64,000 bases of DNA from a virus. Where the stretch lies: positions 6,921 to 70,920 of the IMG/VR virus record IMGVR_UViG_3300042691_040117; one strand, written 5' to 3'. This document shows, in pieces, positions 33,378-64,000 of this stretch (the first letter of the stretch is position 1; every line of letters begins with the position of its first letter). A program made the position numbers and the translations under genes. The notes below the pieces were generated by a model. The model was not told where the DNA came from and made no database searches. It saw nothing but the letters and a program-made list of their open reading frames with translations.

Positions 33378-33404
33378 GTTTTAAATTCCTCTCATTTATG
33401 TATG

Positions 33405-34978: not shown

Positions 34979-34993
34979 TACCTAAAACTTTTA

Positions 34994-37268: not shown

Positions 37269-37330
37269 ATGAATTATTAAAAAGGTTTCATTGTGGATAT
37301 TTATTAGTTATATTATAGCATGTTTTTTAA

Positions 37331-42450: not shown

Positions 42451-43246
42451 AATTTTCTAACTTATCTAAACTGTATTCATTCCACCAAGATTTCCAATCA
42501 ATAAAGAAATCCTTATCCCATTCTGTCTGCATGTGAAGAACTAATGATGGAATAGGTGTAAAGCAGTAATATCCTTTCTCATAATAAATCTTACAAACAC
42601 TGTCCAATTCCATTGTTTCTGATACTTCGCTTGTTCCCATTTTATAAAACAAATCCCAATGTTTTTTTATAATATCAATATGTGTCATTAATGTGAATGC
42701 TGGATGAATGTTTGTTCTCCAGTATCTATCTTTTGACACTACAATTTGGCAAGGAACTGCAGTATTTTCTGCCTGGTGATACTCTGCAGGTTTATTAAAA
42801 GGAAACACACTTGCAGGAGCACTCAGGTTGCAACTGAACTGATTAATTGCATGTATCATTAGTTCAATTGAATTTTGTTGATGTAGAAAATCATCCTGAA
42901 CAAAATACACCCAGTCACTTCCATAGTCTCTTCCGTGCTCATAACAACGAAGTATAGAAGGCATTATACCATAAGTTTCAAGATGTGTTAAGTTAATTTT
43001 AAATTTTGCAGTATCAATAAGTCTCTGAAGAATATCTAGGAACTCTTGATCCGAATGATCATCAAAGATTTGTAATTCTATTTCATAATTTGGATATTGT
43101 TCTTGTGCATAATTTAAACTATCAATCAAGGAATATACACATCGAGAACAGACTTCTATTTTTGGAGCATTACAATATCTTACTTGAGAGTCGTCTCTAT
43201 TTCCTTTTGAATGTGTTTGAAGAACTACTAATAAATGAGATTTCAT
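42443..43246 (-). CDS. GT2-like glycosyltransferase
   Basis: IFDDHSD, VYFVQDDFLH, PIPSL.LH. Confidence 0.7.
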   Translation of the reverse strand: MKSHLLVVLQTHSKGNRDDSQVRYCNAPKIEVCSRCVYSLIDSLNYAQEQYPNYEIELQIFDDHSDQEFLDILQRLIDTAKFKINLTHLETYGIMPSILRCYEHGRDYGSDWVYFVQDDFLHQQNSIELMIHAINQFSCNLSAPASVFPFNKPAEYHQAENTAVPCQIVVSKDRYWRTNIHPAFTLMTHIDIIKKHWDLFYKMGTSEVSETMELDSVCKIYYEKGYYCFTPIPSLVLHMQTEWDKDFFIDWKSWWNEYSLDKLENYV

Positions 43247-44025
43247 AAATCAAATTTAGAATAAATTTTTACATTTTCCTCTCCTATGACATCAATAGGA
43301 TTTTGAGAAATTTTAGAAAGATTTGGTCTTATATCGTGAAGACCAAGAAGACCCCACTGATCATCTTTCTGTTCTCCGCAGGCATTTTCAATATTGTTAA
43401 ATGTATTTGTATGAGAAGGAACTTCTAAAAACTCATAGATTTTATTGAGTTCTTCTTCTGGATTTTCTACAAGACTATTATATTCAACCAAATGGACCCA
43501 ATCTGGATATTTATTGAGTCCATAAATCATACTCTCATAAGAAGGAGAAACATAATATCTCCAAATATATTCGGCACGATTATTATTTGTGATTGGTAAA
43601 TTATCTTTTCTTAAATGATTATCAATAAAATTTTCTTTATGATCTGTTCTTTCAATCAATGAAATATAAGATGTGAGAACTTCTGGAATAGAACGATATG
43701 TTGCTACAATCTTTGGTTTATTGGAAAGAAATATCTGAACTGTATCAAGGTTCTTTCCCCAAAATCTATGTTTATCTAGGATTGTTGATTTTGGAATATG
43801 ATTATAAAAGTTAGCAAGAACTGCTTTATAAACATTATAAGAGATTTTCTTGCGATCAAAAGTAAATTGAATATCAAGTCTATTGAATGATTTTTCAATA
43901 TCAGTTACAACATCACCCAAAGGAGAAGTTGGTGATACATAAATGTCTGGATGTTGATTTAAAAGTGATCCAAGTAAAGTAGATCCACTTCTCGGAAGAC
44001 CTCCAAGAAAATACAATGTTCTCAT
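43243..44025 (-). CDS. Sulfotransferase
   Basis: GLPRSGSTLLGSLLNQHP (5'-PSB loop), DK.R.W, R...EVL.S, Y..LV..P. Confidence 0.9.
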   Translation of the reverse strand: MRTLYFLGGLPRSGSTLLGSLLNQHPDIYVSPTSPLGDVVTDIEKSFNRLDIQFTFDRKKISYNVYKAVLANFYNHIPKSTILDKHRFWGKNLDTVQIFLSNKPKIVATYRSIPEVLTSYISLIERTDHKENFIDNHLRKDNLPITNNNRAEYIWRYYVSPSYESMIYGLNKYPDWVHLVEYNSLVENPEEELNKIYEFLEVPSHTNTFNNIENACGEQKDDQWGLLGLHDIRPNLSKISQNPIDVIGEENVKIYSKFDL

Positions 44026-44066: not shown

Positions 44067-47000
44067 TTAATTTTTTGCAATTGCTGCTACAAGGCGACTT
44101 CCAGAACTGACTTGTTCCCAGTTAGTACCTCCGGCAAATGTTGTAACTGGAGTTGATCTATTAGTAGTAGTAGCATTTCCAAGTTGTAAAAAGGCATTAT
44201 CTCCCCAAGTCCATAGAGTTCCATCAGTCTTAATTGCTGCTGTACTATTTCTATTAGCACTGACTTGTCTCCAATTAGTTCCTCCGGCAAATGTAGTTAC
44301 TGGGGTGTAACTATTACTATTGATCGTACCATTAGTTCCAAGTTGCCCCTCACTTTCATAACCCCAGGTCCATAAAGTTCCATCGGTCTTGGTTGCTGCT
44401 GAATGTAAATCTCCAGCACTGACATATCTCCAATTAGTTCCTCCAGCAAATGTGGTGACCGGAGTTGATATAGTTACATTAAACCCAGAAGAAACACTAC
44501 CGTAAACAAATCCCCAAGTCCATAAAGTTCCATCGGTCTTGATTGCAGTTGTATGATCACCTCCAACACTGACTTGTTTCCAATTGGTTCCTCCGGTAAA
44601 TGTTGTGACTGGAGTAGATACGCTACCTGATATAGTTGCATTTCCAAGTTTTCCAAAATCTCTCGGACCCCAAATCCACAGAGTTCCATCAGTCTTAATT
44701 GCTGCAGTATGAGCATTTTTAGCACTCACTTGCTTCCAGTTAGTTCCACCAGCAAAGGTGGTAACTGGAGTAGATCTAATACCTGTCGTAATTCCATTTC
44801 CAAGAACCCCAGATTGTCCATTACCCCAAGTCCATAAAGTTCCATCGGTTTTTATCGCTGCTATGTGAGATAAATTTCCAACACTAACTTGCTTCCAATT
44901 AGTTCCTCCAGCAAATGTAGTTACTGGAGTTGATCTATTAATCGTATCTCTAGTTCCAAGAACTCCATTAAATCCTCTTCCCCAAGTCCATAGAGTTCCA
45001 TCTATCTTGATTGCTGCTACATGTTCTCTCCCAGAACTTATTTGTCTCCAATTAGATCCTCCAGCAAATGTGGTGACTGGAGTGGATCTATCACCCGATA
45101 CATCATTATTTCCAAGTTGTCCAAGTTGCCCATAACCCCAAGTAAATAAACTAAACAAATCCGGTAGATTATAAGTAGGATCAACGCTTTCTATGGCACA
45201 AACACGATATCCTCCAGAAGAACCAACGGACTTCCAATTACTTCCACCCAAAAATGTTGTAACCGGAGTGGATGCATAAGTAATGCCTGCTTGAGCAAAT
45301 TGATATCCAGTGCCCAATTGGTCTTGTGTATCACTTCCCCAAGTCCAAAGAGTTCCGTTGGTTTTAACTGCTGCCATGTGATATCCACCACAACTCACTT
45401 GTTTCCAAGTTGCTCCTCCGGCAAAGGTGGTGATCGGAGTGGATACATAAAGTTCAATATCGGGAGCACTAGAAAGAGGTGCCTTTGCATTTCCAAGTAT
45501 TCCATAATACCCATTACCCCAAGTCCATAGGGTTCCATCATTTTTAATTGCTGCCATCATATTTACGGTGTAATATCCACCAGCACTGACTTGTTTCCAG
45601 TCTGTTCCTCCGGCAAAGGTGGTGATTGGTTCGGCACTACTCTGATATAATTTAGAAGTTCCAAGTTGAGCTTGCCCATTAGCTCCCCAAGTCCATAAAG
45701 TTCCATCGGTTTTGACTGCTGCAGAGGAATGATATGAGCAAGATACTTGTTTCCAGTTAGTGTCTCCTCCTACTTTTCTCGGAATATCATTAATTTGAAC
45801 ATAAAATGTATCTCCAAGTTGACCATATCGAGCATATCCCCAAGTATACAATTGATTATTATTGTTCAAAGCTGTCGTATGAGAATTTCCAGCAATGACT
45901 TGTGTCCAGTTGTTACCACCGGCAAATGTTGTGATTGGAGTGGATGCGGAAAAATACTCGGTAGGGGTGTCAAAATCTAGAAATCCATTAGCATTTCCAA
46001 GTTCTCCTGTTTCACCAATGCCCCAAGTCCATAGAGTACCATCGGTTTTGATTGCCGCAGTATGTCTATTTCCGGCACTCACTTGTTTCCAATTGGTTCC
46101 ACCAGCAAAGGTGGTGACTGGAGTGGAACTATTACCCCCATCAGTATTTCCAAGGGTTCCAATTGGACCACCACCCCAAATCCAAAGAGTTCCGTCAGTT
46201 TTAATTGCTGCTGTATGATAACCACCAGAACTCACTTGTTTCCAATTGGTTCCACCAGCAAAGGTGGTGACTGGAGTGGAACTATTTGCTACTGCTGCAT
46301 TTCCGAGTCCTCCAAATAAACTACGACCCCAAGCCCATAAGGTTCCATCAGTTTTGATTGCTGTGGTATGAGCACCACCAGTACTTACTTGCTTCCAATT
46401 AGTTCCTCCTGCAAATGTGGTGATTGGAGTTGATATATTACCTGTTGTTACTCCATTTCCAAGTCGCCCATTAGTTCCATTACCCCAAGTCCATAAGGTT
46501 CCGTCAGTTTTGATTGCTGCCATAGTCGAACCTCCACCACTTACCTGTTTCCAGTTGGTTCCTCCGGCAAATGTTGTAATAGGAGTTGATATACTAATTG
46601 TTGTAACTGCATTTCCAAGTTGACCAGAACTTCCAAAACCCCAAGTCCATAAGGTTCCATCGGTTTTAATTGCTGCCTTATAATCTCCACTACCACTTAC
46701 TTGTTTCCAATTGGTCCCTCCAGCAAAGGTGGTGATTGGAGTGGTTACAAAATTTTGCCCAGAAGTTGCTGTAGCACCATTTCCAAGTTTTCCTACATTT
46801 GCTTCACCCCAAGTCCATAGGGTTCCATCAGTCTTGATTGCTGCCGTATGATTATTTCCAGCACTTAAGGTATAAAGATCTTCAGGATTAGTTGTTGGAG
46901 TATCTGCCCAGTTAGTTCCTCCGGCAAATGTTGTCTGTGGGGTGGATCTAATAGGTGTATAAGTTGGTCCTGTACCTAATTGACCAAAATAAGCATACCC

Positions 47001-48583: not shown

Positions 48584-49359
48584 ATGTTATATTGAACTCC
48601 TTCCATTCCTTTAATAACACTTAATCCTAAATTAGGAATAGTTATCATGTTTTTCTTATTTAAAAATCTGTACAAAGAATGTTCTATGTCCGTTCCTGCA
48701 GTATATTGCATCATTCGTTCCAAATACAAAAATGACTTTTCAAGAGACTCTATAATTTCATTAAATAACATTCTATCAAAAGACCATAACCCGGTCACCA
48801 TCATTCCTTTAGCACCATAAAGATAGGCATAAACATTTTCTAATTCTTTCTCATCAAAATTTTCTTGCTCTTCAGTTAGATAATCATATTTTTTAATTAC
48901 ATAATAATTTTCTAAAAATTTACTTTGATAATCTTGAATATCAAAATCATCATTAAGTAAATATCTTCCGGTCAATTTAAAAACTCTTTGACTATCATTA
49001 AATAAATTATGCTGCCGAATGAAGTAAAGAGTATTCAATAATCCTCTTGTTTCCAATAAGGATTTTCCATAAGTAATGTACTTTGAGTCTTTTTGAATAT
49101 TCGCATAAAGTGCTTTCAGACCTGGTTCATCATAAAACTCTAGAAACAAATCACACTCCTTTCTTAAGATTTCTTTGTGCCTTTCTTCTATAGATGTAGA
49201 AGAACACTCAAACAAAATAATATAAGAGTTGGGTACTTTTTCTCTAACTGACTTAATTGTTTCCAGTGTTTGTTCAAATCTTTGCTCTTCACTATAAGCA
49301 CTAAACTTATCCTCTTGAAAATGCTTAAGTGCAGAACCGACTAAAAATAAAAACTTCAT
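48580..49359 (-). CDS. Putative glycosyltransferase-like protein
   Basis: RFEQTLETI.S.R, FKLTGRY.L...F, DIEH; likely start MKFLF at 49359. Confidence 0.55.
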   Translation of the reverse strand: MKFLFLVGSALKHFQEDKFSAYSEEQRFEQTLETIKSVREKVPNSYIILFECSSTSIEERHKEILRKECDLFLEFYDEPGLKALYANIQKDSKYITYGKSLLETRGLLNTLYFIRQHNLFNDSQRVFKLTGRYLLNDDFDIQDYQSKFLENYYVIKKYDYLTEEQENFDEKELENVYAYLYGAKGMMVTGLWSFDRMLFNEIIESLEKSFLYLERMMQYTAGTDIEHSLYRFLNKKNMITIPNLGLSVIKGMEGVQYNI

Positions 49360-50078
49360 AGCATACCTCTCTTCCAAGCCCATAGTTGTTCATCTATTTG
49401 TTGTTCTTCACGATAAGAACCCCTTTCAATCTTATCTATCCACATATGAAGAAGGTTGATTTTATCTTCTTCGGAAATACAAAAATCGTGATTAAACCAA
49501 TAGTTCATTTTTCCATCTTTCGGTATTAACTGATGGAATGTTTCTACCTTTAATCCATACTTTGCAATATTACGACTTACCAAATAATCATCAAGAATAT
49601 GACCAGGAGTATAACCAAAGTTCTTTTCTAAATCCATTGGATTGATCTGATCTACAAACTGCTCCGGGTCCTCATGAGGTTTCCATGCATGTCGAGTCCA
49701 ATCACTGAATACACATACCCAAGTTGTTGCAGCAATATTTCTATTATCTCTTCTTGCATAGTTATTATGCTTAAATCTAAAAGGATAATAGTCATATCGA
49801 TTGAAGATTACACAATCCTTATCAAAGATTTCAGTCAAATCTGGACAGTTTGGATGAACCAGAGCATCAGCATCCAGAAAAATAGTCCAATCATAGTTTG
49901 CTCCAATTTCATATAACTGGAACTTTTCCATATTCGGAGAAAGATGTGGAAACTTTCTCTCATTCATAATCACAAAATCAGCACCAATCTTTTCTGCATA
50001 TTTCCTCATATAAGGATATGTAAGATTGGTAATGTCTTTATTGTAATTAATGTCCAGTGTAACGAGTGCTTTCTTCAT
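49356..50078 (-). CDS. GT-A glycosyltransferase (GT8/GT34-like)
   Basis: YAEKIGADF, EKFQL, IFLDADAL (DxD). Confidence 0.7.
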   Translation of the reverse strand: MKKALVTLDINYNKDITNLTYPYMRKYAEKIGADFVIMNERKFPHLSPNMEKFQLYEIGANYDWTIFLDADALVHPNCPDLTEIFDKDCVIFNRYDYYPFRFKHNNYARRDNRNIAATTWVCVFSDWTRHAWKPHEDPEQFVDQINPMDLEKNFGYTPGHILDDYLVSRNIAKYGLKVETFHQLIPKDGKMNYWFNHDFCISEEDKINLLHMWIDKIERGSYREEQQIDEQLWAWKRGML

Positions 50079-50553
50079 AATCTGTATTGAAACTAATAAC
50101 TATTCTTTGCTCTTTTTCTTCTTCTGTATAATGAACCAAATCACTTGAAAAGATGACCAGTAATCCAGAATAAGGTTTAATTGAAGTATCTATATCGGGA
50201 AACAATAGCGGAACTGAATTTTCACCAACAGAGACATAAAATGCTCCGCTTAAAATACTTTCTTCACCACCACTATGATTATGTGGTTTTAACTTACTTC
50301 CAGGTTCCGTAATATTAAACCAACTATTAATAAATTTAAGTTTTGTAATTTTATGCTTTTCACAATATATTCTAACATACTTTTTGATAATTTTATTTAA
50401 ACTTTGCAGTTCAGAGTACATTAAAATTGGCATTCCAAAATTAAAACTGGACTTACCTTTAGTAATTAATCCATGTTCATTTGTTTGAGTTGAATATAAA
50501 AAATTTTGAATACTTTTAAGATTTAAATAAGAAAGGTCATACTGCTCTATCAT
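50047..50553 (-). CDS. 2OG-Fe(II) oxygenase (TIGR02466-like)
   Basis: SWFN...PHNH...LSGAFYV, P..G.LVIF.S.L.H, RIVISFN. Confidence 0.85.
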   Translation of the reverse strand: MIEQYDLSYLNLKSIQNFLYSTQTNEHGLITKGKSSFNFGMPILMYSELQSLNKIIKKYVRIYCEKHKITKLKFINSWFNITEPGSKLKPHNHSGGEESILSGAFYVSVGENSVPLLFPDIDTSIKPYSGLLVIFSSDLVHYTEEEKEQRIVISFNTDYEESTRYTGH

Positions 50554-51931: not shown

Positions 51932-54900
51932 CTAAAATTCTTCAGATTTTAGTGCTAGAGTATTACCTGACTCACTAACCATTACTTGTTTCCAATTGGT
52001 TCCTCCGGCAAAGGTGGTGACTGGAGTATACCTTGTTGAAAAAATATCATTTAATCCAAGTTCAGGACCACCATAACCCCAAGTCCAAAGAGTTCCGTCG
52101 GTTTTGATTGCTGCCGTATAATCATATCCATTACTCACTTGTTTCCAGTTAGTTCCACCGACAAATGTAGTTTTGGGTATGGCATTTTCATATATCATAA
52201 TTTTAGAATATGCGGTTTCCGAAAAACCCCAAATCCAAAGAGTTCCATCTGTCTTGAGTGCTATACTACTACTATTGATAATTTTAGTCTGCGACCAATT
52301 ATTTCCTGCAAATGTAGTTGTTGGAATACTTATTGGATTGCCCCAACTCCATAGAGTTCCATCTGTTTTTATCGCAGATTTATAGTTTATGGATTTCCAA
52401 TCAGTTCCACCAGCAAATGTAGTGAGTGGTATGTTTCTTTCATCAATAAAAAGTCCCAATTGAGTATTTGCATTACTACCAAATAACCATAATTGTTTGT
52501 TTACACCATCGTCTTTCAGTGCTACAGTATGATTAGTTCCTCCATCTACTTGCTTCCAATTAGTTCCTCCGGCAAAGGTGGTGACTGGAGTAGATCTGGT
52601 GGTTGTATCATTAGTACCAAGTTGTCCTGAAGTTCCAGTACCCCAAGTCCATAGAGTACCATCGGTCTTGACTGCTGCTGTATGACCTCTTGAAGCACTT
52701 ACTTGTTTCCAGTTAGTTCCACCGGCAAAGGTGGTGACTGGAGTGGATCTATCAGTAGTATCATTAGTTCCTAATTTCCCTTGAATACTTCCATAAACTT
52801 GATTTCTACCCCAAGTCCATAAAGTTCCATCGGTCTTGATTGCTGCCGTATAATCATATCCAGCACTTACTTGTCTCCAGTCGGTTCCTCCTGCAAATGT
52901 TGTGACTGGAGATATTACACTAGTATTAGATGTTATTGCATTTCCAAGTCTTCCTCCAATCCCAGTACCCCAAGTCCATAAAGTTCCATCGGTCTTGATT
53001 GCTACAGTATGAGCACCTCCAGCACTTACTTGTTTCCAGTTAATTCCCCCAGCAAATGTGGTGACTGGAGTAGATCTAAAACCGAAAGATGCAAAGTTTC
53101 CAAGCCTTCCATTGTATGCCGAACCCCAGGTCCATAAGGTTCCATCAGTTTTGATTGCTGCAGTATGTTGATTTCCAGAACTTACTTGCTTCCAGTCGGT
53201 TCCTCCTGCAAATGTTGTGACTGGAGTTGATTTACTGGTTACATTATTATCATTAGTTCCAAGTTGTCCAGCATTATTGCTTCCCCATGTCCATAATGTT
53301 CCATCGGTTTTGATTGCTGTCATATAATCAAGGTTACCTATAGCACCACTGACTTGTTTCCAATTGGTTCCTCCGGCAAAGGTGGTGACTGGAGTGCTTA
53401 TGCCAGGTATGGTGTTTGATGTTGCCGCAGTTCCAAGACCAAATTGCCCATTACCCCAAACCCATAAAGTTCCATCGGTCTTGATTGCTGAACACATGTT
53501 CGAAGATGCTGCTATTGTATAAAGATCTTCTGGATTTGTTGTAGGAGTATCTGCCCAGTTATTTCCTCCGGCAAATGTAGTAACCGGAGTAGGTCTATAG
53601 TCAAGATAAGACCTTGCCAGATCTACGGATGTCTGTCTACCCCAAGTCCACAAGGTTCCATCAGTCTTGAGTGCAATACCAACTTCAGTATATTTCCAAT
53701 TGGTCCCACCGGCAAATGTTGTGACTGGAGTGCTTCTATTGGTTCTATCACCAGTTCCAAGCTGTCCACGAGCATTAGACCCCCAAGTCCATAAGGTTCC
53801 ATCAGTTTTGATTGCAGATCCACCACTATCCATATAAACTTGTTTCCAATTTATTCCTCCTGCAAATGTAGTAGCTGGAGTATGATTATTACCCAACTGC
53901 ACACCCAATGAACCACTACCAAATACATACAACTGTTTATTCACACCATCATCTCTTAAAGCAAGTGTATGAGATCCACCAGCACTTACTTGTTTCCAGT
54001 TAATTCCCCCAGCAAATGTGGTGACTGGAGTGGATACATTGCTAATAGTATTAGTATTTCCAAGTTGTCCTTTAATTCCATTACCCCACACCCATAAGGT
54101 TCCATCGGTTTTAACTGCTCCAACATGTCTATCACCAACACTTACTTGTTTCCAGTTGGTTCCTCCGGCAAATGTTGTAATGGGCGTTAATTTATATGAC
54201 TGAAGTGTTGGAGAAAATATTTCACCAGTTCCAAGTTGTCCCTCATTTGTTTGTCCCCATAACCACAAAGTTCCGTCAGTTTTGACTGCTGCCATACAAT
54301 TGTACCCAGAACTCACCTGTTTCCAATCGGTTCCTCCTGCAAAGGTGGTGACTGGAGTGGATCTAATTGGAGATGCTCCAGTATCATTAGTTCCAAGTCT
54401 TCCAAAATTTGCAGTACCCCATCCCCATAAAGTTCCATCAGTTTTGATTGCTGCAGTATTATCCTTCCCACAAGTAACTTGTTTCCAATCTGTCCCACCA
54501 GCAAAGGTGGTAATTGGAGTGCTTATCTCATAACCGAAAGTCAACAGTACAGCATTTCCTAATTGCCCAGATCTGCTATTTCCCCAAGTCCATAAGGTTC
54601 CATCGGTCTTGATTGCTGCTGTATGATTATTTCCTGCACTTACTTGTTTCCAATTGGTTCCTCCGGCAAATGTTGTGATAGGAGTAGATTTAAAGTAGAG
54701 TGTTCTTCCTCCAGTTCCACCACTTCTAACAGAAGGAGCATTTCCAAGTTTTCCATAATAAGTATCACCCCAAACCCATAATGTTCCATCGGTTTTGATT
54801 GCTGCTGTATGACTATCACCAGCACTGACTTGTTTCCAATTTATTCCTCCGGCAAAAGTGGTTGTTGGAATTGATATGTAATTTGCCGTTTCTTCACTCC

Positions 54901-57900
54901 CAACATCTAAAATTTTATTTTGATTTTCTCCGATTTGAATATCAATTTGATTAGGAACATTTTCATAAAAAGTAATCTCATAAACCATATTGGGATTATC
55001 AAGATCATCTGATATCATATAAGTTCCTTCACACCTTATTCTATAGGTTCTATTAGGTGCCGTCCCTTCTGGTCCATAACATAATCTATGTACGCTTCCA
55101 TCAGTAGCAGTTATCATTATTTTGGGAAGTGATGGATTTCCAACACTTAAGCTTAATCCTTGATGACCTTCTCCAAAAGTTATGAAATGATTTGTTGTTG
55201 GACAAACTCTTCTATAAGTCTTTCCATTAAAAGAAATATTAAATGGCAATTCTAAAACCCAAAATCCATCATCATATCCACCATAAGGCGGTTGCAGAGT
55301 CTCATCTATTGTTAAAGATGCTGGTCCTAATAAATTATTTGCGATAGGAGTTACTGTACCACTGCCACTTGTCGTGGTAATTCTTTTCCCAGTATAAGGA
55401 TCGGAATTAAAGCTGAGAGTTCCTGGCAATCTTCCATTTTCATCACATATTCCATCAACTCCAAGTTGATTATAATTTTTATTGATGTATCTTAGTAGTG
55501 GGTGTATTTTAGCATAAGAATATCCCCAGGTCCATAAGGTTCCATCGGTCTTGATTGCCACACTATTTGGTCCTGAATAATAACTACCAAAAGATCCCCC
55601 AGCAGACAGTGTATAAAGATCTTCGGCATTTGTTGTAGGAGTATCTGCCCAGTTATTTCCTCCGGCAAATGTTGTGATTGGTGTTGATACAATTGCATCA
55701 AAATAATTAATAGAATATCTACCAAGTGTCCCATTTAAACTATCACTATTACCCCAAGTCCATAGTGTTCCATCAGTTTTGACTGCTCCCATAACACCAT
55801 ATCCAACCGAAACTTGTTTCCAGTTGGTTCCACCAGCAAAAGTGGTAACCGGAGTAGATCTAGTTCCAAGACTATTAATTCCAAGTTCACCATGATAATT
55901 TTTACCCCAAACCCATAGAGTTCCATCAGTTTTGACTGCTGCAGAAGTGGCATATGAGGTACTTATTTGCTTCCAATTGGTTCCCCCGGCAAATGTAGTA
56001 GCTGGAGTATTTGCTTGAGCTTCAAGACGCAAAGCATTTCCAAGTTGCCCGTAATTTCCTCCTCCCCATGTCCATAGGGTTCCATTTTTTTTAATTGCGG
56101 CAAAGGAGTTACTGTCTCCATTAAAATTTGTATCTTGAACGGATATTGTATATAAATCTTCCAGATTTATTATTTGAGTATCATTCCAATTTTCTCTGGG
56201 ATTAACTTCAAGTGGAAAGTCTATATTTCCTCTAAATTGTTTACCAATTCCATCAAGTGCTCTACCAAGTTGTCCATAATTATTGTTTCCCCACATCCAT
56301 AAGGTTCCATCAGTTTTGACTGCTGATGTATGATTATATCCAACACTTACTTGTTTCCAATTAGTCCCACCGACAACGGTGGTAATCGGAGTAAATCTTG
56401 CTCTTGGATCTACGGCAATATAACCATAAGTATTATACCCAGAAGATATATTTGGATCTCCCAGTGCTTTATTACGGTTTGATCCCCAAGTCCATAAGGT
56501 TCCATCGGTTTTGACTGCGGATGCATGTATATCACCCATACTCACTTGTTTCCAATTTGTTGCATCGGATTGCAAAACAGGTACATATAAATTATTAAAC
56601 ATACCCAACTCGCTAGTAGCATTACGACCCCATGTCCACAAGGTTCCATCAGTTTTCATTGCAATTGTATATTCGGAAGCATTACTATCAAAACTACTAC
56701 TCAGAGTATATTGAGGACAAAAAACTTGACTCCAATTAGTTCCTCCGGCAAAAGTAGTAATGGGAGTGCTTACGCTTGCCTGCCCGTATCCTTGGAAAAT
56801 ACCTGATCCTAATTCTCCATATCCATTAAATCCCCATGTCCACAGAGTACCATCAGTTTTTATTGCTGCAGTATGACGAGAACCGGCAGCTACTTGTTTC
56901 CAGTTAGTTCCACCGGCAAATGTTGTGATAGGGGTGATGGCGGTGTTAAAATTAGTACCATTTCCAAGTTTTCCCGTTAAATTATTTCCCCACACCCACA
57001 GAGTTCCATCAGTCTTAATTGCTGCAGTATGATAACCCCCGGAAGAAACTTGTCTCCAATTGGTTCCCCCTGCAAATGTTGTGACTGGAGTTGATCTAAC
57101 ACCAAAGATACTATTAATTCCAAGTACTCCATAACTGGGATTACCCCAAGTCCATAAAGTTCCATCGGTTTTAATTGCTGAAACGAACTTATTACATCCA
57201 CAACTAATTTGTTTCCAGTCGGTTCCTCCGGCAAATGTGGTGACTGGAGTAGACCTATTGGATAGGGATATACCTGCATTTCCAAGTTCTCCAGCAGTAT
57301 TATTACCCCAAGTCCATAAAGTTCCATCAGTTTTGATTGCACCAGTAAATAAACTTCCTGCAGATATTTGTTTCCAATTTGTATCATTAGAAACTTTAGT
57401 AGGTGCTACTATAGTGGTAATAAAATTTCCCAATTGAGTACTGGAATTATCTCCGAATAACCATACTTGTCTATTCACACCATCATCTCTTAAGGCAAGT
57501 GTATGAGAAGCACCAGCACTTGCTTGTTTCCAGTTGGTTCCTCCAACAAAAGTGGTAATTGGAGTTGATATATTACCTGTTGCAATCGCATTTCCAAGTC
57601 TCCCACTAGCTCCAGTACCCCAAGTCCATAAGGTTCCATCAGTCTTAACTGCTGCTGTATGAGAACCACCAGAACTTACTTGTCTCCAGTTGGTCCCTCC
57701 AGTAAATGTTGTAATAGGAGTTGATATACTCCCTGTCGTAACTGCATTTCCAAGTGCTCCACTACCACCAGATCCCCATATCCATAAGGTTCCATCGGTT
57801 TTGACTGCTGCAGTAAGACCACTCCCAGAAGAAACTTGTTTCCAGTCTGTTCCTCCGGCAAAGGTGGTGACTGGAGTGGATATACTACCTGTTATAACCG

Positions 57901-59611
57901 TATTTCCAAGAGCCCCAGAAATTCCACTACCCCAAGTCCATAGAGTTCCATCAGTCTTAACCGCTGCTGTATGATTTACATTACTGGAAACTTGTTTCCA
58001 GTCGGTTCCTCCAGCAAATGTTGTGACTGGAGTGGATCTATTACCTAATATAGTTGCATTCCCAAGTCGACCAGCAGTTCCAAAACCCCACATCCATAGG
58101 GTTCCATCAGTTTTGACTGCTGACATATTACTACCCGCACCACTGGTACTTACGTGTTTCCAGTCGGTTCCTCCAGCAAAAGTAGTGACTGGAGTGGATA
58201 TACTCCCTGTTGTTACGCCATTTCCAAGTAACCCGGTTGCTGCAGTACCCCAAGTCCATAAGGTTCCATCAGTTTTGATTGCTGCCGTATAATCTCCTCC
58301 AGAACTTACTTGTTTCCAATTAGTTCCTCCAGAAAATGTAGTTATTGGAGTAGATATAGTACCTAATACAGATTTATTTCCAAGTCGTCCAAAAGTTCCA
58401 AGACCCCAAGTCCATAGAGTTCCATCGGTCTTGATTGCTGCAGAAAAACTTGTCCCTCCGCTCAAGGTATAAAGGTCTTCGGCATTTGTTGTAGGAGTAT
58501 CTGCCCAGTTATTTCCTCCGGCAAATGTAGTTATTGGAGTTGAAATATAATTTGTCGGAAATCCAAGTTGCCCACTATTATTTTGACCCCAAGCCCATAA
58601 TGTCCCATCGGTTTTGATTGCTGTTGTATAAAATTCTGTAGAATGTGAATTAGAAGAGACTTGTCTCCAGTTAGTTCCTCCGGCAAAGGTAGTTGATGGA
58701 GTACTGCCAGGAGATGATAATACCAATTCTACCTTATTATTTCCCAACTGACCAGTAGTATTATTTCCCCAGGTCCATAGAGTTCCGTCAGTTTTAATTG
58801 CAGCAGCATGAAAGCGACTTCCGGTGATTGTATAAAGATTTTCCTCTTCAGGACTAGGTACACTAGGTACATTTAACCAATTAGTTCCTCCGGAAAATGT
58901 AGTTATTGGAGTTGAAATAGTATGAATAATTTTTTCATGACCAAGAATTGCTTTATCAGATACCTCTCCAAATCCTGTAGGTCCCCATGTCCACAGAGTT
59001 CCATCAGTCTTAATTGCTGCAGTACCATATCTTGCCGCAGAAACTTGTCTCCAGTTTGTTCCTCCAACAAAAGTGGTAACTGGAGTAGATATATTAGTAA
59101 CAACGGTGTTATTGGGATCAGTATTAGATCCTATCCCATTACCAAGAAGGTAAACAGAACCCCAAACCCATAGAGTTCCATCGGTTTTGATTGCTGTAGC
59201 ATGATCCTTTCCACATGCAACAGATTTCCAGTTAGTTCCTCCGGTAAAGGTTGTGACTGGAGTGGATCTTGAAGTTATGTCTGCATTTCCAAGTTGTCCA
59301 GTATTTCCAACACCCCAAACCCATAAAGTTCCATCTGTCTTGATTGCTGCCGTATAAAAATCTCCAGAACTGACTTGTTTCCATCTAAATCCTCCAGCAA
59401 ATGTAGTGACTGGAGTACTTCTTGCTAAAGTATCAGCGGTTCCAAGAATAAAATTAGGTCCATTAACACCCCAACCCCACAATTCTGGACTAATTCCAAG
59501 ATTTTCTGCAATACCTGGATAAACACTAATCAAATAATCCTTGGTAATTAATTTAGACCCTAAATCAACACCATTATTATCTTTAAAATTAGTTTGAATA
59601 TTATCTGGCAT
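51932..59611 (-). CDS. Giant RCC1-repeat protein (2559 aa; 6 nested propellers plus one non-RCC1 insert)
   Basis: 42 RCC1 blades counted from the translation. Confidence 0.9.
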   Translation of the reverse strand: MPDNIQTNFKDNNGVDLGSKLITKDYLISVYPGIAENLGISPELWGWGVNGPNFILGTADTLARSTPVTTFAGGFRWKQVSSGDFYTAAIKTDGTLWVWGVGNTGQLGNADITSRSTPVTTFTGGTNWKSVACGKDHATAIKTDGTLWVWGSVYLLGNGIGSNTDPNNTVVTNISTPVTTFVGGTNWRQVSAARYGTAAIKTDGTLWTWGPTGFGEVSDKAILGHEKIIHTISTPITTFSGGTNWLNVPSVPSPEEENLYTITGSRFHAAAIKTDGTLWTWGNNTTGQLGNNKVELVLSSPGSTPSTTFAGGTNWRQVSSNSHSTEFYTTAIKTDGTLWAWGQNNSGQLGFPTNYISTPITTFAGGNNWADTPTTNAEDLYTLSGGTSFSAAIKTDGTLWTWGLGTFGRLGNKSVLGTISTPITTFSGGTNWKQVSSGGDYTAAIKTDGTLWTWGTAATGLLGNGVTTGSISTPVTTFAGGTDWKHVSTSGAGSNMSAVKTDGTLWMWGFGTAGRLGNATILGNRSTPVTTFAGGTDWKQVSSNVNHTAAVKTDGTLWTWGSGISGALGNTVITGSISTPVTTFAGGTDWKQVSSGSGLTAAVKTDGTLWIWGSGGSGALGNAVTTGSISTPITTFTGGTNWRQVSSGGSHTAAVKTDGTLWTWGTGASGRLGNAIATGNISTPITTFVGGTNWKQASAGASHTLALRDDGVNRQVWLFGDNSSTQLGNFITTIVAPTKVSNDTNWKQISAGSLFTGAIKTDGTLWTWGNNTAGELGNAGISLSNRSTPVTTFAGGTDWKQISCGCNKFVSAIKTDGTLWTWGNPSYGVLGINSIFGVRSTPVTTFAGGTNWRQVSSGGYHTAAIKTDGTLWVWGNNLTGKLGNGTNFNTAITPITTFAGGTNWKQVAAGSRHTAAIKTDGTLWTWGFNGYGELGSGIFQGYGQASVSTPITTFAGGTNWSQVFCPQYTLSSSFDSNASEYTIAMKTDGTLWTWGRNATSELGMFNNLYVPVLQSDATNWKQVSMGDIHASAVKTDGTLWTWGSNRNKALGDPNISSGYNTYGYIAVDPRARFTPITTVVGGTNWKQVSVGYNHTSAVKTDGTLWMWGNNNYGQLGRALDGIGKQFRGNIDFPLEVNPRENWNDTQIINLEDLYTISVQDTNFNGDSNSFAAIKKNGTLWTWGGGNYGQLGNALRLEAQANTPATTFAGGTNWKQISTSYATSAAVKTDGTLWVWGKNYHGELGINSLGTRSTPVTTFAGGTNWKQVSVGYGVMGAVKTDGTLWTWGNSDSLNGTLGRYSINYFDAIVSTPITTFAGGNNWADTPTTNAEDLYTLSAGGSFGSYYSGPNSVAIKTDGTLWTWGYSYAKIHPLLRYINKNYNQLGVDGICDENGRLPGTLSFNSDPYTGKRITTTSGSGTVTPIANNLLGPASLTIDETLQPPYGGYDDGFWVLELPFNISFNGKTYRRVCPTTNHFITFGEGHQGLSLSVGNPSLPKIMITATDGSVHRLCYGPEGTAPNRTYRIRCEGTYMISDDLDNPNMVYEITFYENVPNQIDIQIGENQNKILDVGSEETANYISIPTTTFAGGINWKQVSAGDSHTAAIKTDGTLWVWGDTYYGKLGNAPSVRSGGTGGRTLYFKSTPITTFAGGTNWKQVSAGNNHTAAIKTDGTLWTWGNSRSGQLGNAVLLTFGYEISTPITTFAGGTDWKQVTCGKDNTAAIKTDGTLWGWGTANFGRLGTNDTGASPIRSTPVTTFAGGTDWKQVSSGYNCMAAVKTDGTLWLWGQTNEGQLGTGEIFSPTLQSYKLTPITTFAGGTNWKQVSVGDRHVGAVKTDGTLWVWGNGIKGQLGNTNTISNVSTPVTTFAGGINWKQVSAGGSHTLALRDDGVNKQLYVFGSGSLGVQLGNNHTPATTFAGGINWKQVYMDSGGSAIKTDGTLWTWGSNARGQLGTGDRTNRSTPVTTFAGGTNWKYTEVGIALKTDGTLWTWGRQTSVDLARSYLDYRPTPVTTFAGGNNWADTPTTNPEDLYTIAASSNMCSAIKTDGTLWVWGNGQFGLGTAATSNTIPGISTPVTTFAGGTNWKQVSGAIGNLDYMTAIKTDGTLWTWGSNNAGQLGTNDNNVTSKSTPVTTFAGGTDWKQVSSGNQHTAAIKTDGTLWTWGSAYNGRLGNFASFGFRSTPVTTFAGGINWKQVSAGGAHTVAIKTDGTLWTWGTGIGGRLGNAITSNTSVISPVTTFAGGTDWRQVSAGYDYTAAIKTDGTLWTWGRNQVYGSIQGKLGTNDTTDRSTPVTTFAGGTNWKQVSASRGHTAAVKTDGTLWTWGTGTSGQLGTNDTTTRSTPVTTFAGGTNWKQVDGGTNHTVALKDDGVNKQLWLFGSNANTQLGLFIDERNIPLTTFAGGTDWKSINYKSAIKTDGTLWSWGNPISIPTTTFAGNNWSQTKIINSSSIALKTDGTLWIWGFSETAYSKIMIYENAIPKTTFVGGTNWKQVSNGYDYTAAIKTDGTLWTWGYGGPELGLNDIFSTRYTPVTTFAGGTNWKQVMVSESGNTLALKSEEF

Positions 59612-59621
59612 AATAATTTCT

Positions 59622-60368
59622 TTAATTAGTGGGCAAATCTAAATTAGGATCTACTATATTTTCTATTTGATTTTTATTTCTAGGTCCTCTTCTTACCGAT
59701 CCTTCTTCTCTTGTATTTCTTATATTTCGTTCTTCAATTAAAACAACATTATAAACATCATCAATTGTTTGGCAAGCATCAATTTCATTCAATTTTGATA
59801 ATTCCCAGTCATATGCTTGCTGAACTACAGTATCTATTTGAGTAATAATATAGTCAAGATCCTCTGGAGTAATTGAAACCCAGGTGTTTTTAAATTTATA
59901 ATTACAAGATCCGGAAAATGATGAACGTTTTGCCGATAATAAAATTCTCTCTTCTCTTGAGGTTGTAACTTCTATATAACTTCCACCAACAAAAATTCCA
60001 GTAGAGGTATTTTCTTTTTGTTTTCTTATAGGAGCAACTTCTTTTTTGCGAAGTTCCTTAACTTCTTCCAGAGTTTTATCTACAATATTATATGTTAATT
60101 TAACATTGACTGGAACATCATTTTCCTTTATGATTTCCCATGTATAACCCTCAATATTATGATATTTCAAATCATGCGATGGAATATCTTTTTCTAATGG
60201 AAGAAGATGCGTAAGACCATCTGAAAAATGGATCGGAAGATCTATGAAACTTTGCGGAGATATGCGATCTTCAAGTTCAAGATCTTCCAATTCACCATTA
60301 ATCATACGGACATTAAATCCCATAGGACCAAGTATTAGTGAATTATCATGAACTAGTGCTATTTCCAT
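59622..60368 (-). CDS. DUF4376-like tail-fibre-associated protein
   Basis: KTLEEVKELRKKEVA..R..KE..G....T..E......YKF...W.......I...I...VQQAYDWE....EIDAC. Confidence 0.65.
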   Translation of the reverse strand: MEIALVHDNSLILGPMGFNVRMINGELEDLELEDRISPQSFIDLPIHFSDGLTHLLPLEKDIPSHDLKYHNIEGYTWEIIKENDVPVNVKLTYNIVDKTLEEVKELRKKEVAPIRKQKENTSTGIFVGGSYIEVTTSREERILLSAKRSSFSGSCNYKFKNTWVSITPEDLDYIITQIDTVVQQAYDWELSKLNEIDACQTIDDVYNVVLIEERNIRNTREEGSVRRGPRNKNQIENIVDPNLDLPTN

Positions 60369-60383
60369 ATATATTTTTTTAAT

Positions 60384-60391
60384 TATTTATG
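60384..60391 (-). promoter_or_regulatory. Late promoter (CATAAATA)
   Basis: Upstream of the DUF4376-like gene; similar AATAAATA motifs at 51910-51917 and 37298-37305 in the glycan island. Confidence 0.55.
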
Positions 60392-62753
60392 AGAGTGGGT
60401 AGTCGGCATTGATACCAGATTGTACTGCTAAAGTATGATAACCAGCAGCTCTTACTTGTTTCCAATTAGTTCCCCCAGCAAATGTAGTGACCGGAGTTGA
60501 TCTTGTTAAAGCATCACCATTTCCAAGTTGTCCAGAAAAATTTTCACCCCACATCCACAAAGTTCCATCGGTCTTGATTGCCGATACATGCTCATTTCCA
60601 ATATCAACATATTTCCAATTTGTTCCTCCGGCAAAGGTTGTAATTGGAGTACTGACATATGTAAAAGAATTTACAAAATTTGCCAACATTCCTGCATTTT
60701 GACTGCCCCAGGTCCATAAAGTTCCATCGGTCTTGATTGCTGCCATGCACAAATAATTATCAAAATAACCTCCAACACTAACTTGTTTCCAATTGGTTCC
60801 TCCGGCAAATGTGGTGATTGGAGTATTTCGATTAATGGAATCACCGACTCCAATATTTCCAGCATAATTATATCCCCAAGTCCATAAGGTTCCATCGGTC
60901 TTGATTGCTGCATTATTATGATATCCAGAACTAACTTCTTTCCAATCGTTAGCATTTCCAAAAACTTGTCCTGGAGCATAATTGGTTTGTATATTAAACC
61001 CATCTCCCATTTGCCCATCACGAGCGGATCCAAATGAGAAAATTTGCAGATTTGGTGAAGTTCCTTTTAGTGCAATAACATGCCTGAAACCACCGCTCAC
61101 TTGTTTCCAATCAGTGCCTCCAGTAAAGGTGGTAACTGGGGTTGATGCAATACCATCAACTGCATTTCCAAGTTCTCCATCAGTTCCACGACCCCAAGTC
61201 CATAGAGTTCCATCAGTCTTGACTGCAACAGTCGTATTTCTTCCATTTGCGACTTGTTTCCAATTGGTTCCTCCTGCAAAAGTGGTGATTGGGGTTGATA
61301 CAGCACCAACATAACCTACTCCATTCCCAAGTGCCCCAGAAAGTCCAAAACCCCAAGTCCATAGGGTTCCATCGGTTTTGATTGCCGTAGATGTTCCGGT
61401 ATTTCCACCTTCACCCACTTGTTTCCAATTAGTTCCTCCGGCAAATGTGGTGACTGGAGTAGATCTAATACCACCTGGTCCAGTTGCATTTCCAAGTTGC
61501 CCATAACTTGTACTGCCCCAAGTCCATAGGGTTCCATCGGTTTTGATTGCCAACGTAGCACTAAATATTGCTGCAGAGTGTTTCCAGTTTATTCCTCCGG
61601 CAAATGTTGTGACTGGTGTAGATGTATTAGTTGTTACTGCGTTTCCAAGTCGCCCAGAAGTTCCAGCACCCCAAGTCCATAGGGTTCCATCAGTCTTAAT
61701 TGCTACAGTATGAGAACTTGAAACACTCACCTGTTTCCAGTTTGCTCCTCCTGCAAATGTGGTGACTGGAGTAGATATAATACCTGTGATTATTGCATTT
61801 CCAAGTATTCCAAATCTCCCATTCCCCCAAACCCATAAAGTTCCATCAGTTTTAATGCCTGCACATGAGGAATCAAAATTTCCTCCAGAACTTACTTGTC
61901 TCCAGTTAGTCCCTCCGGCAAAAGTGGTGACTGGAGTGGACCTGTTGATTGTTTGAGCATTTCCAAGTTGTCCACTATTCCCATTACCCCAAGTCCACAA
62001 GGTTCCATCGGTCTTGATTGCTGAAGAAAAAGAATATCCTGCAGATATTGTATATAAATCTTCTGAATTTGTTGTTGCAGTGTCTGCCCAACCTGTTGTG
62101 GTAATAGGAACAGGTTTAGTTTTATTTACTGAATAATCATCACCTTTACCCAACATTCCAAAATCATTAAAATAATCACCCCAAGTCCACAAGGTTCCAT
62201 CAGTCTTGATTGCCGACGCATGATAATATCCAACACTTACTTGTTTCCAGTTGGTTCCTCCTGCGAGTGTAGTAACAGGAGTGGATACAAAAGAAATTGT
62301 ATTATTTCCTATTCCAAGTTGCCCTCTACCATTATACCCCCAAGTCCATAAAGTTCCATCAGTCTTGATTGCGGCAGCAAAAAGTCCTTTCATCTCTATT
62401 TGCTTCCAGTTAGTTCCTCCAGCAAAAGTAGTGATTGGAGTGGAATTATTGAGTATGTTTGAATTGTTTCCGAGTCTTCCAGCATCACCATTTCCCCAAA
62501 CCCATAAAGTTCCATCAAGTTTTATTCCAGCACTTTGTCTTTGTCCGCCATCCACTTGTTTCCAATTGGTTCCTCCAGAACTAGTTGTAACTGGTGTGGG
62601 ATTGTAAGAATTAATACTAGCATTTCCAAGATAACCGCGAGCTCCCTCACCCCATGACCACAATTGATCTCCAATATACTGATCAATTAACCAGTACTCA
62701 TCTACAAAATAATTTTCAAGGTCTCCTTCTGGTGAAAAAAACTGATTAGGCAT
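60387..62753 (-). CDS. RCC1-repeat beta-propeller protein (788 aa; 2 propellers, one nested)
   Basis: 14 blades counted; same repeat consensus as the other two. Confidence 0.9.
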
Positions 62754-64000
62754 TCAATTTTCTCTCCAATTCTTCAATATGTATTTGCTGTTCTTTAATT
62801 GCTTCTATTAATACACCAACAATATTTCCATATGAGACTGTCTTCAATCCTTGATCATTCGTAGTTACAACTTCTGGAAGAACTCTTTCTACTTCTTGTG
62901 CGATCACACCAACTGAAGATTGACTATGCTCATCTTTCCAATCGTATTTAACACCGTTCATTTGTTTTACAAGATCAAGAGCATTTTCAATTGGTCTTAT
63001 ATTAGTCTTTTGAGTTTCATCAGATAGTGATGTGAATACTGTTGCTGATAAAGTTCCGGTAGAAGCATTAAATTGAAGTTTTGTATTAGAAACATATGCA
63101 GTGGTATAAGTACCGGTAGTAGCACTAGATAAAGTTGGATACCAGGTTGCATTTGTTGTCGTATCGTTTTGAAGCGTTGCACCACCACTAAAGTTTACCC
63201 AACTCACGCCAGCACCAGTAGAGATTAAAACACTACCGGCGACACCAACATTATTGAAGAAATCATAAAGACCATTCCTCAATCTTATATTACCAACAAT
63301 ATCAAGTTTTTGAGTTGGATTTGTAGTTCCTACTCCAATGTTTCCACCAAAAGGACCAAGTTCAATAGTCCCATTAGCATCGACATCAATAGCAGGAATT
63401 CCAGAAACATCATTAACACTGAAAATACTTCCGGAAGTAAGATTATTTGTAATACTGAATAACTGTCCAGCAGAACCTTCCCAGGATAAAGTACCGGAAT
63501 TTAAAGTATCGTAAGGAACAATATCAATTATTGTACCAATTCCAAGTGCTCCAGTCGAAGGATTGAATTGAAGTTTTGTAGAAGAAACATGTGCTGTTTT
63601 GGCAATTCCAGATGTTACGGAAAGAATGCCAACAGACCAAGTTTGATTTGTAGTTATATCATTAAAGACTGTTAATCCGCCATCGGAAGATCCTTGAAGT
63701 CCTTGAGTGCCTTGAGATCCAACTCCCTGAAGTCCTTGAAGTCCTTGAGGACCTTGAAGACCCTGACGACCTTGAGTGCCTTGAGATCCAACTCCTTGAA
63801 GACCTTGAAGTCCTTGAGCACCTTGATCACCCTTAAGACCTTGAGTACCTTGAGATCCAACTCCTTGAAGACCTTGAAGTCCTTGAGGACCTTGAGGACC
63901 TTGAAGTCCTTGAGTACCTTGAGATCCAACTCCCTGAAGTCCTTGAAGACCTTGAGCACTTTGAACACCTTGAGTACCTTGTGTCGTACCGGCAATACCT
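62746..64000 (-). CDS. Tail fibre C-terminal part with collagen-like repeats and an S74 intramolecular chaperone (starts beyond the right edge)
   Basis: Frame open from 63999 ([23 protein letters not shown]...); [16 protein letters not shown]; [51 protein letters not shown]. Confidence 0.9.
63690..63985 (-). repeat. Collagen-like Gly-X-Gln repeat (9-bp periodic ccttgaaga/ccttgagt units)
   Basis: Visible tandem repeat with recurring GVGSQG interruptions. Confidence 0.9.

Follow-up and report, generated by a model that had tools for sequence, protein, structure and literature searches.

We analysed a 64,000-nucleotide stretch of viral DNA (the window, corresponding to positions 6,921 to 70,920 of IMG/VR record IMGVR_UViG_3300042691_040117), in which a single uninterrupted open reading frame (ORF) at 51932-59611 on the minus strand encodes an RCC1-repeat protein of 2559 aa, designated P0001. 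The repeats of this protein follow a nested sequence grammar, in which recurrent linkers open modules of seven blades that may themselves be interrupted by further modules, and the same grammar recurs across related proteins. Parsed in this way, P0001 is read as 42 blades in six sets of seven (6 x 7), written Main[A[B],C[D,E]], with a nesting depth of 2. We propose, with good confidence, that P0001 is a branched protein of many propellers, probably associated with the virion, and that it grows as whole-propeller cassettes are copied and pasted into the loops joining one blade to the next.

Sequence grammar of the 2559-residue protein

RCC1 families were the sole Pfam matches in P0001. PF25390 scored 1115 bits (cut-off 150), PF00415 scored 693 bits over 28 stretches and PF13540 scored 678 bits over 30 stretches; by the Pfam cut-offs the protein, with repeats of about 50-60 residues, belongs to the RCC1-like domain (RLD) beta-propellers. 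A regular expression recovered 41 cores of the 'AIKTDGTLW' type, in addition to an N-terminal half blade (PELWGWG), which follows about 42 paralogue-specific residues at the start of the chain, and C-terminal strands (NTLALKS) at its very end (NTLALKSEEF). A blade hidden Markov model (HMM) built from the protein's own regular blades gave 43 hits, two of which are the halves of a single blade split by about 196 foreign residues, so that 42 blades are counted in P0001.

Two kinds of landmark organise these blades. Five linkers of the form 'W + 10-13 residues + LYT' start at residues 245, 369, 1142, 1321 and 2019, and three blades (12, 29 and 38) carry a variant hairpin, AL[RK]DDGVN[RK]Q..FG, each of them being the seventh blade after a linker. 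In an automatic stack parse, in which every linker pushes a new counter that is popped at seven blades, P0001 was resolved as bbbb[bb[bbbbbbc]bbbbb]bb[bbb[bbbbbbc]bb[bbbbbbc]bb]b, with seven blades at each level, including the outermost. An earlier sequence-only reading of this DNA had claimed 42 blades arranged as Main[A[B],C[D,E]] with seven per module, an opening linker with quoted sequences for each module, and closure of the three innermost modules by the DDGVN blade. The regular expression, the blade HMM and the stack parse bear these claims out, and the module boundaries that had been given agree with those of the parse within about 70 nt (Table 1).

With the half blade counted first, the linkers follow blades 4, 6, 20, 23 and 32 of 42. 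The resulting spacings of 4, 2, 14, 3, 9 and 10 blades make consecutive rings of seven impossible in P0001. A tandem multi-propeller protein, which would show a boundary every seven blades, was rejected on these spacings, as was the reading of the linkers as ordinary inter-propeller linkers, since they are not spaced in sevens. An expansion of decayed or junk repeats was likewise rejected, because the frame is open over 7.7 kb and the motifs are kept in relatives at 45-60% identity.

Cassette architectures in related proteins

Using the downstream TPR gene (58-84% identical) as an anchor, we fetched 34 related loci, and an RCC1 ORF was located just upstream of this gene in 32 of them. The ORF encodes about 410 aa in 18 loci; the remaining lengths are 774 aa (one locus), 1165 aa (one), 1152 aa (three), 2294 aa (two), 502 aa (two), 309 aa (one) and 1850 aa (one), and three ORFs are cut by the contig end. 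The N-terminal motif of the giant is present in 25 of the 29 complete orthologous ORFs. These positional orthologues range from single propellers of about 410 aa to proteins of 2, 3 and 6 propellers, and keep conserved N- and C-terminal tails. With M for the outer propeller and brackets for cassettes, the 774-aa orthologue is M6[X7]M1, the 1152-aa orthologue M3[A7]M3[B7]M1, and the 2294-aa orthologue M4[A7][B2[C3[D7]C4]B5]M2[E7]M1. The 1165-aa orthologue is M3[A3[B7]A4]M4, in which B and A each end in a closer. Hosts interrupted by a complete guest are therefore found beside host homologues without it, namely the single-propeller orthologues with the same termini, and guests that host a further guest occur both in P0001 (depth 2) and in relatives (to depth 5). 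Growth by whole seven-blade cassettes, which the sequence-only reading had inferred, is supported by these homologues and by the blade counts that follow.

A pooled set of 283 unique proteins was assembled, including the results of two database searches, one for long relatives and one for relatives of 2-3 propellers. From these, 119 proteins with at least one linker and less than 25% irregular blades were kept. The blade count is a multiple of seven in 103 of the 119 and equals 7 x (linkers + 1) in 88, and seven blades are found at every level in 87. Among these 87 parsed relatives, 29 distinct architectures of 2 to 7 propellers were distinguished, the maximum nesting depth being 1 in 53 proteins, 2 in 25, 3 in 5, 4 in 3 and 5 in 1.

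The closing blades provide a check on the parse. An irregular closing blade occupies the predicted seventh position in 140/164 cassettes of the relatives, and irregular blades make up 9/1593 of all others. The agreement extends from uninterrupted cassettes (100/112) to interrupted ones (40/52), in which the seventh blade is counted at the cassette's own level. When linkers were re-placed at random (1000 shuffles), a mean of 12.8 closers fell at predicted positions (standard deviation 3.4, maximum 23), against the 140 observed. Three groups can be distinguished among the two-propeller proteins from the tails at their N- and C-termini (gp335-, gp337- and gp344-like, after their counterparts in Synechococcus phage S-SRM01), and each group keeps its own tails. 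In all three groups the cassette is found after host blade 4, 5 or 6, and in two of them also after blade 3.

Cassette junctions and concerted evolution

Strands are named here according to the usual four-strand description of the RCC1 blade. The order within a repeat is an inner strand ('KQVSxG'), 'HTAAIKTDG', 'TLWTWG', GxLG and then a last segment. Stand-alone propellers in this phage group have the third strand of a blade as their first and the second as their last, and the two chain ends thus complete one blade. The cut point of a cassette is different: its first ten residues (ADT[AP]T..PED) come directly behind '...GGNNW' of the host, 'LYT' then opens the first inner strand, and seven complete blades follow, the last of which is usually a variant closer (DDGVNK...FG) whose final strand is altered. 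At the exit, the '...TNW' of the closer runs straight into the next 'KQVS' of the host with no extra linker. Entry and exit thus share one host loop, which has a spacer at the entry and none at the exit. The spacer is exactly 10 residues long in 151 of the 164 linkers of validly parsed relatives. We infer a geometry in which the last loop of the closer would connect the guest's rim with the centre of the host face, and the spacer of 10 residues would reach from the centre of the host to that of the guest.

Across the host-to-cassette junction, 45 nt are identical in linkers L2, L4 and L5 (window around 58465-58510, 55610-55655 and 53515-53560, minus strand). The cassettes are 73-76% identical in DNA, and elsewhere in them identical residues share a codon 59-64% of the time. 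The junction identity suggests either local gene conversion or a constraint at the DNA level. Regular blades have no position-specific identity, and blade n of an orthologue matches all blades of a larger protein about equally, both for P0001 and for a second RCC1 protein of the window (788 aa) compared with 26 orthologues. This loss of blade-specific identity is a sign of strong concerted evolution within the RCC1 genes. Blade-by-blade orthology, applied to the placement of blades 18, 19 and 41 in Main and of the host blades of the 788-aa protein, recognised the terminal blades alone, because the blades are homogenised; blade 6 of the orthologues matched blade 41 of P0001 best, and their C-termini matched as well. 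BLASTP alignments pass straight over the linker. Ordinary blades are homogenised, yet openers and closers persist, which argues for selection on the openers and closers.

Tandem additions use another junction. The third RCC1 gene of the window (1165 aa) carries, after its interrupted propeller, a C-terminal tail and then a further N-terminal half blade, with no linker between them, and this C-terminal propeller is the only one of the sequential type in the window. The linker is thus specific to insertion and is not a mark of any domain boundary.

The sequence grammar and its generality are established by these data; nesting in three dimensions, the recombination mechanism and an adhesin role are proposals. 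We propose the following model. A single chain would form a tree of six seven-bladed RCC1-type propellers and not beads on a string. Main would be the counterpart of the single-propeller protein of about 410 aa encoded at the same genome position, its two N-terminal and two C-terminal strands completing one blade, and everything outside Main would be inserted into loops that normally join neighbouring blades. Each cassette would consist of the opener (10 residues, with LYT starting the first inner strand), seven blades and, usually, a variant closer, and could receive a further cassette, giving Main[A[B],C[D,E]]. Homologous recombination or gene conversion between near-identical blades would carry cassettes to further blade-blade junctions. 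Every junction is flanked by near-identical blade DNA, and the loss of blade-specific identity is what frequent gene conversion is expected to leave. A 'blade-cassette-blade' donor that converts a 'blade-blade' junction would insert exactly one linker and seven blades, so that the rule is preserved. More generally, we consider it reasonably likely that the seven-bladed propeller with its 10-residue opener and closing blade is a self-similar block that can be pasted recursively into any blade-to-blade loop, and that it builds phage tail-module proteins as branched trees, at least five levels deep, that are remodelled between close phages.

Weighing the proposed nested fold

Several observations count against the proposed model, beginning with the grammar itself. 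Cassettes A and C of P0001 lack the canonical DDGVN closer, and in C blade 39 is short and blade 40 aberrant. The automatic parse failed for 32 of the 119 linker-bearing proteins. All counts were taken over related proteins and do not represent independent events, although the variety of architectures argues for many separate events despite this kinship. The grammar could, moreover, record a history of insertion without dictating the fold. In structure prediction, AlphaFold2 gave a predicted local distance difference test score (pLDDT) of 46.9 and a predicted template modelling score (pTM) of 0.38 for residues 1-1142 of P0001, from a 27-row MAFFT alignment of mixed architectures. For the 788-aa neighbour, modelled from an alignment with 41 two-propeller relatives, overall confidence was low to middling (pLDDT 58.4, pTM 0.51). 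The Foldseek alignments of the latter model span 389-425 columns, that is, one ring of about seven contiguous blades, and other topologies would match equally. The long-range order of the repeats comes from one assembly; unitigs of other sequencing runs match pieces of it exactly, and none spans the ORF. Finally, the proposed virion association is drawn from gene neighbourhood and analogy only.

The ends of A and C had been placed by blade count in the sequence-only reading. This placement gains modest support from the last strand of the closing blades, and the absence of the canonical closer tells against it. Among relatives, the 'TTF.G' motif of the last strand is absent in 111/159 closers as against 64/1556 other blades, and 'P[KN]TTF' occurs in 5/159 closers as against 0/1556 other blades. 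Blade 17, the predicted last blade of A, lacks TTF and has a closer-like D-strand region (LYVPVLQSDATNW); blade 40, the predicted last blade of C, has the rare PKTTF and no GxLG. Blades 18 and 19 likewise fail the TTF pattern, and the support that TTF gives to these two ends is therefore modest. In addition, A aligns with B best in register (score 1109; none of the six other cyclic shifts exceeds 1010). For C, no comparable in-register alignment signal was found, and cassette C, chiefly its third segment with blades 39-40, is the least secure part of the parse.

Eight of the unparsed proteins were inspected by eye, comprising seven family proteins and one divergent ORF. Four of the seven family proteins have linker variants missed by the pattern (LYN, LHT, EKLYT or no W), three have a tail-to-head tandem propeller (one of them together with a missed variant) and one was a spurious double match. 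The remaining unparsed proteins include fragments and distant bacterial proteins with chance matches to the regular expression. The divergent ORF (L033:4415-9961, plus strand), at the same locus, encodes an RCC1 protein of 1849 aa, which has a different N-terminus and very degenerate, irregular blades and does not follow the cassette rule.

In the AlphaFold2 model of the 788-aa protein, core strands reach a pLDDT of 70-83, and DSSP assigned two N-terminal strands, 13 strand triplets and two C-terminal strands, the pattern expected of chain ends that complete one blade. The best Foldseek matches of this model are the seven-bladed RCC1-like domains of UVR8 and RPGR (TMt 0.70-0.74), the RPGR match having a TMt of 0.74 and a root-mean-square deviation of 5.0 Å over 389 columns. 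A complex prediction from four pieces of P0001 that omit A[B], D and E (residues 1-245, 1021-1321, 1923-2019 and 2406-2559) scored 0.00 with an uncertain partner fold and speaks neither for nor against nesting. A further alignment, combining the 788-aa protein with 38 single-propeller orthologues and 14 cassettes, was not used for folding, as MAFFT stacked the short rows on the first half.

These predictions are compatible with a history of insertion without nesting, in which cassettes were pasted in during evolution and the chain nevertheless folds otherwise, as consecutive seven-blade rings or with some other packing, the linkers and closers being surface loops and blade variants. Homogenised blades, any of which resembles any other, and a return loop of ordinary length from cassette to host would also suit such a history. 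We regard it as unlikely on the following grounds. Proteins of one to seven propellers keep the half blade at the N-terminus and the strands at the C-terminus, which need each other to complete a blade, and this puts the two chain ends in a single ring. Cutting the chain into consecutive sevens never leaves each ring with one opener and one closer, and closers are the seventh blade of their own level in most interrupted cassettes; that only the nested partition provides each ring with one opener and one closer is an argument for nesting. The linker is held at a fixed length, the features of openers and closers outlast the homogenisation of other blade differences, and true tandem additions use a different junction, which together argue for nesting as well.

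Integrity of the assembled reading frame

A second alternative is that a repeat-rich ORF of 7.7 kb was mis-joined or expanded during metagenomic assembly. The source record is a 70.9-kb fragment with an estimated completeness of 30%, and unitigs from public runs break at the repeats and show many alternative joints, and none of the unitigs extends across the whole ORF. Many joints between unitigs are what repeats give. Logan unitigs from four runs, each of a different study, covered all 30 bins in three cases and 28 of 30 in the remaining run. Exact matches over 400-1350 nt recur among the runs of three or four studies; one of these runs may be the source sample. The difference-free pieces include 58502-59019 (L1 to L2; three runs) and 55643-56513 (across L3). 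At their level of DNA identity, the cassettes pose no great difficulty for assembly. No stop interrupts the frame over 7,680 nt of DNA with a G+C content of 38-42%, and the seven-per-level grammar, which random mis-joining of blades would break, is intact. Independent contigs, furthermore, carry proteins with the same grammar. We therefore consider an assembly artefact very improbable.

Genome context and probable function

The nearest cultured relative of this virus, a freshwater cyanophage, is the freshwater cyanomyovirus Synechococcus phage S-SRM01. There, a baseplate wedge gene and a long tail fibre gene are followed by the RCC1 gene gp335 (344 aa), gp336, the RCC1 gene gp337 (405 aa), a TPR gene and a 2OG-Fe(II) oxygenase gene and, further on, by the RCC1 gene gp344 (393 aa), a sulfotransferase gene and glycosyltransferase genes. 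The order in the window matches: a tail-fibre ORF, the 788-aa RCC1 gene, a 248-aa gene with a weak 'tail fiber' hit in PHROGs, the 2559-aa gene, a TPR-like gene and an oxygenase gene, and further on the 1165-aa RCC1 gene, a sulfotransferase gene and genes for glycosyl- and methyltransferases. Because gp337 shares the N-terminal motif of the giant and ends in the same kind of two strands, it is, to judge by sequence and position, the annotated single-propeller counterpart of P0001. The 788-aa and 1165-aa genes are orthologues of the single-propeller gp335 and gp344. The sequence-only reading had mentioned neither of these two further cassette-bearing genes.

Table 1. Parts of P0001 and neighbouring genes in window coordinates
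Feature	Position	Strand	Description
Main segment 1	58877..59611	minus	Residues 1-245; paralogue-specific N-terminal ~42 residues, half blade 0 (strands C, D), blades 1-3; N-terminus common to single-propeller orthologues
Cassette A, whole, including nested B	56552-58876	minus	From the stack parse
Cassette A segment 1	58505..58876	minus	Residues 246-369; 13-residue linker L1 (LNVPSVPSPEEEN), then LYT, blades 4-5
Cassette B	57374..58504	minus	Residues 370-746; linker L2 (ADTPTTNAED, then LYT), blades 6-12, closer ALRDDGVNRQ
Cassette A segment 2	56552..57373	minus	Residues 747-1020; blades 13-17
Main segment 2	56186..56551	minus	Residues 1021-1142; blades 18-19; position from the parse alone
Cassette C, whole, including nested D and E	52145-56185	minus	From the stack parse
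Cassette C segment 1	55649..56185	minus	Residues 1143-1321; linker L3 (NDTQIINLED, then LYT), blades 20-22
Cassette D	53846..55648	minus	Residues 1322-1922; linker L4, blades 23-29, closer ALRDDGVNKQ; first blade holds the inserted domain
Non-RCC1 domain, ~196 aa	54878..55465	minus	Residues 1383-1578; inserted after the GxLG motif of blade 23
Cassette C segment 2	53555..53845	minus	Residues 1923-2019; blades 30-31
Cassette E	52397..53554	minus	Residues 2020-2405; linker L5, then LYT, blades 32-38, closer ALKDDGVNKQ
Cassette C segment 3	52145..52396	minus	Residues 2406-2489; blade 39 (short, 38 aa), blade 40 (no GxLG; 'PKTTF')
Main segment 3	51932..52144	minus	Residues 2490-2559 and stop; blade 41, C-terminal strands NTLALKS, which would complete half blade 0
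788-aa RCC1 gene	60387..62753	minus	gp335-like, M4[X7]M3; cassette 60942-62087
Tail-fibre ORF	62746-63999, open at window end	minus	Collagen triple-helix repeats, C-terminal Peptidase_S74 intramolecular chaperone, PHROG tail-fibre hits
Third RCC1 gene, 1165 aa	44067..47564	minus	gp344-like, M4[X7]M3; cassette 45753-46907, then a tandem seven-blade propeller

The gene for P0001 is encoded in a tail-fibre/baseplate block, since the collagen and Peptidase_S74 ORF lies upstream and the S-SRM01 counterparts follow the baseplate wedge and long tail fibre genes. P0001 also matches phrog_4219, members of which were reported as detected by mass spectrometry in virions of Escherichia coli phage W70 (W70_237-239; PMC11370258), and an RCC1-domain protein is reported as a virion protein of phage GAP32 (PMC5259590). 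The position beside tail-fibre genes and the membership in phrog_4219 suggest a virion-associated, host-binding protein. P0001 would belong to the tail-fibre module of the virion, with its short paralogue-specific N-terminus as the anchor. Its propellers would present many ligand-binding faces to the host surface, and gain and loss of cassettes would tune valency and reach. We give the adhesin role slightly better than an even chance. The N-terminal anchor peptides had no match in PHROGs. A phage of cyanobacteria would not be expected to have the activity of RCC1 proper, which is guanine-nucleotide exchange on Ran, and RCC1 is used here as the name of a fold.

A nested protein might also be real and serve another purpose than receptor binding or adhesion in the virion, acting inside the infected cell or as a substrate or scaffold for neighbouring glycan-modifying enzymes. 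In PHROGs the family is listed with nucleotide metabolism, on the strength of its name only, and the RCC1 genes adjoin genes for a sulfotransferase, a glycosyltransferase, a methyltransferase and a 2OG-Fe(II) oxygenase. The main text of the S-SRM01 paper does not mention these proteins. Against such a role, the genes sit directly after tail-fibre and baseplate genes, the RCC1 proteins of W70 and GAP32 are reported from virions, and rapid length variation between close relatives is generally typical of host-recognition proteins, which would here point to host recognition. A role of this other kind is possible but doubtful.

The genes for glycan- and protein-modifying enzymes form a large block interleaved with the RCC1 genes (window 27710-44025 and 49356-50553, minus strand). 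It contains a sulfotransferase gene, several family-2 and family-17 glycosyltransferase genes, a gene for a 901-aa multi-methyltransferase/glycosyltransferase, and two 2OG-Fe(II) oxygenase genes.

Comparison with known systems

The closest published parallel is Si3 of the cyanobacterial RNA polymerase beta' subunit (RpoC2), which is reported to contain eight hybrid-motif domains in a recursive architecture of six levels, with single hosts that accept several insertions (PMC13114784). In Si3, copies of one small fold are recursively inserted into one another, as is proposed here for the propellers of P0001. The principle of recursive insertion is thus already in print. The RCC1 proteins are remarkable for the large unit, the equal size of guest and host, the opener and closer, and the rapid turnover: one seven-blade propeller of about 380 aa serves as both guest and host, where Si3 is described as built from small hybrid-motif domains, the RCC1 units carry a dedicated opener and closer, and their architecture varies between closely related phages.

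Among propeller proteins, gp337, gp335 and gp344 of S-SRM01 resemble the window genes in genome position, N-terminal motif, C-terminal strands and blade consensus. Unlike P0001, they have 344-405 aa and one propeller each, without linker or closing blade. HERC1, HERC2 and tandem propeller proteins share with P0001 the presence of several RCC1-like seven-blade propellers in one chain, and solved single RLDs are its best structural and sequence matches. In HERC1 and HERC2 the RLDs are separate, sequential domains, whereas the linker spacing of P0001 is incompatible with consecutive rings of seven. The integrin alpha I domain sits between propeller blades, and UBR5 reportedly has an interrupted RLD. 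As in P0001, the propeller in these proteins tolerates a whole domain in a loop and still closes; in contrast to P0001, the guest has a different fold and the insertion is not recursive. The virion RCC1 proteins of W70 belong to the same PHROG as P0001, phrog_4219 (PMC11370258), but the hosts and phage groups of W70 and GAP32 are unrelated to those considered here. No description of propellers nested in propellers was found in searches of the literature on RCC1 and cyanophage propellers, inserted propellers and domain insertion.

Domain insertion usually places a small guest in a larger host. Here the same propeller of about 380 residues would play both parts, up to five deep, in arrangements that differ from one close relative to the next. 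Should the fold follow the grammar, a repeat domain of ring shape would be able to close without the usual terminal 'Velcro' while both of its ends are pinned to a host loop. Homologous recombination between repeats would then act as a rule-preserving generator of new architectures, amounting to a natural generative grammar for protein architecture on a large domain. For phage biology, the family would represent multivalent proteins of freshwater cyanophages that evolve rapidly and probably serve in host recognition, with three paralogues of variable valency. For protein design, it would offer insertion-tolerant junctions, a natural linker of defined length and a scaffold principle for multivalent binders.

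The inserted domain and base composition

The non-RCC1 domain of about 196 aa in the first blade of D (residues 1383-1578), also not mentioned in the sequence-only reading, matched no Pfam family up to E = 10 and nothing in PHROGs, and had no significant match among Protein Data Bank sequences (best E-value 0.61). It is a real family, with 478 cluster representatives found at E <= 1e-3 and, at the stricter E <= 1e-10, 205. Language-model features liken it, at 0.94, to clusters whose members bear NIDO in 70% or 14% of cases. This likeness is a lead and does not make the domain a member of NIDO (nidogen-like, PF06119), as no match to the Pfam profile was obtained. Relatives carry the domain at a comparable site. 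A subtilase domain occurs together with it in 4 of the 10 scanned relatives, and in one of these the inserted domain lies inside the Peptidase_S8 match. The domain sometimes occurs in many copies, with 13 stretches in one protein of 4359 aa (P0359). It looks like a habitual inserted domain.

The G+C content is about 38-42% across the RCC1 genes (window 51932-62000) and about 29-35% in most other parts of the window. The consensus-like repeats of the RCC1 genes have a composition of their own.

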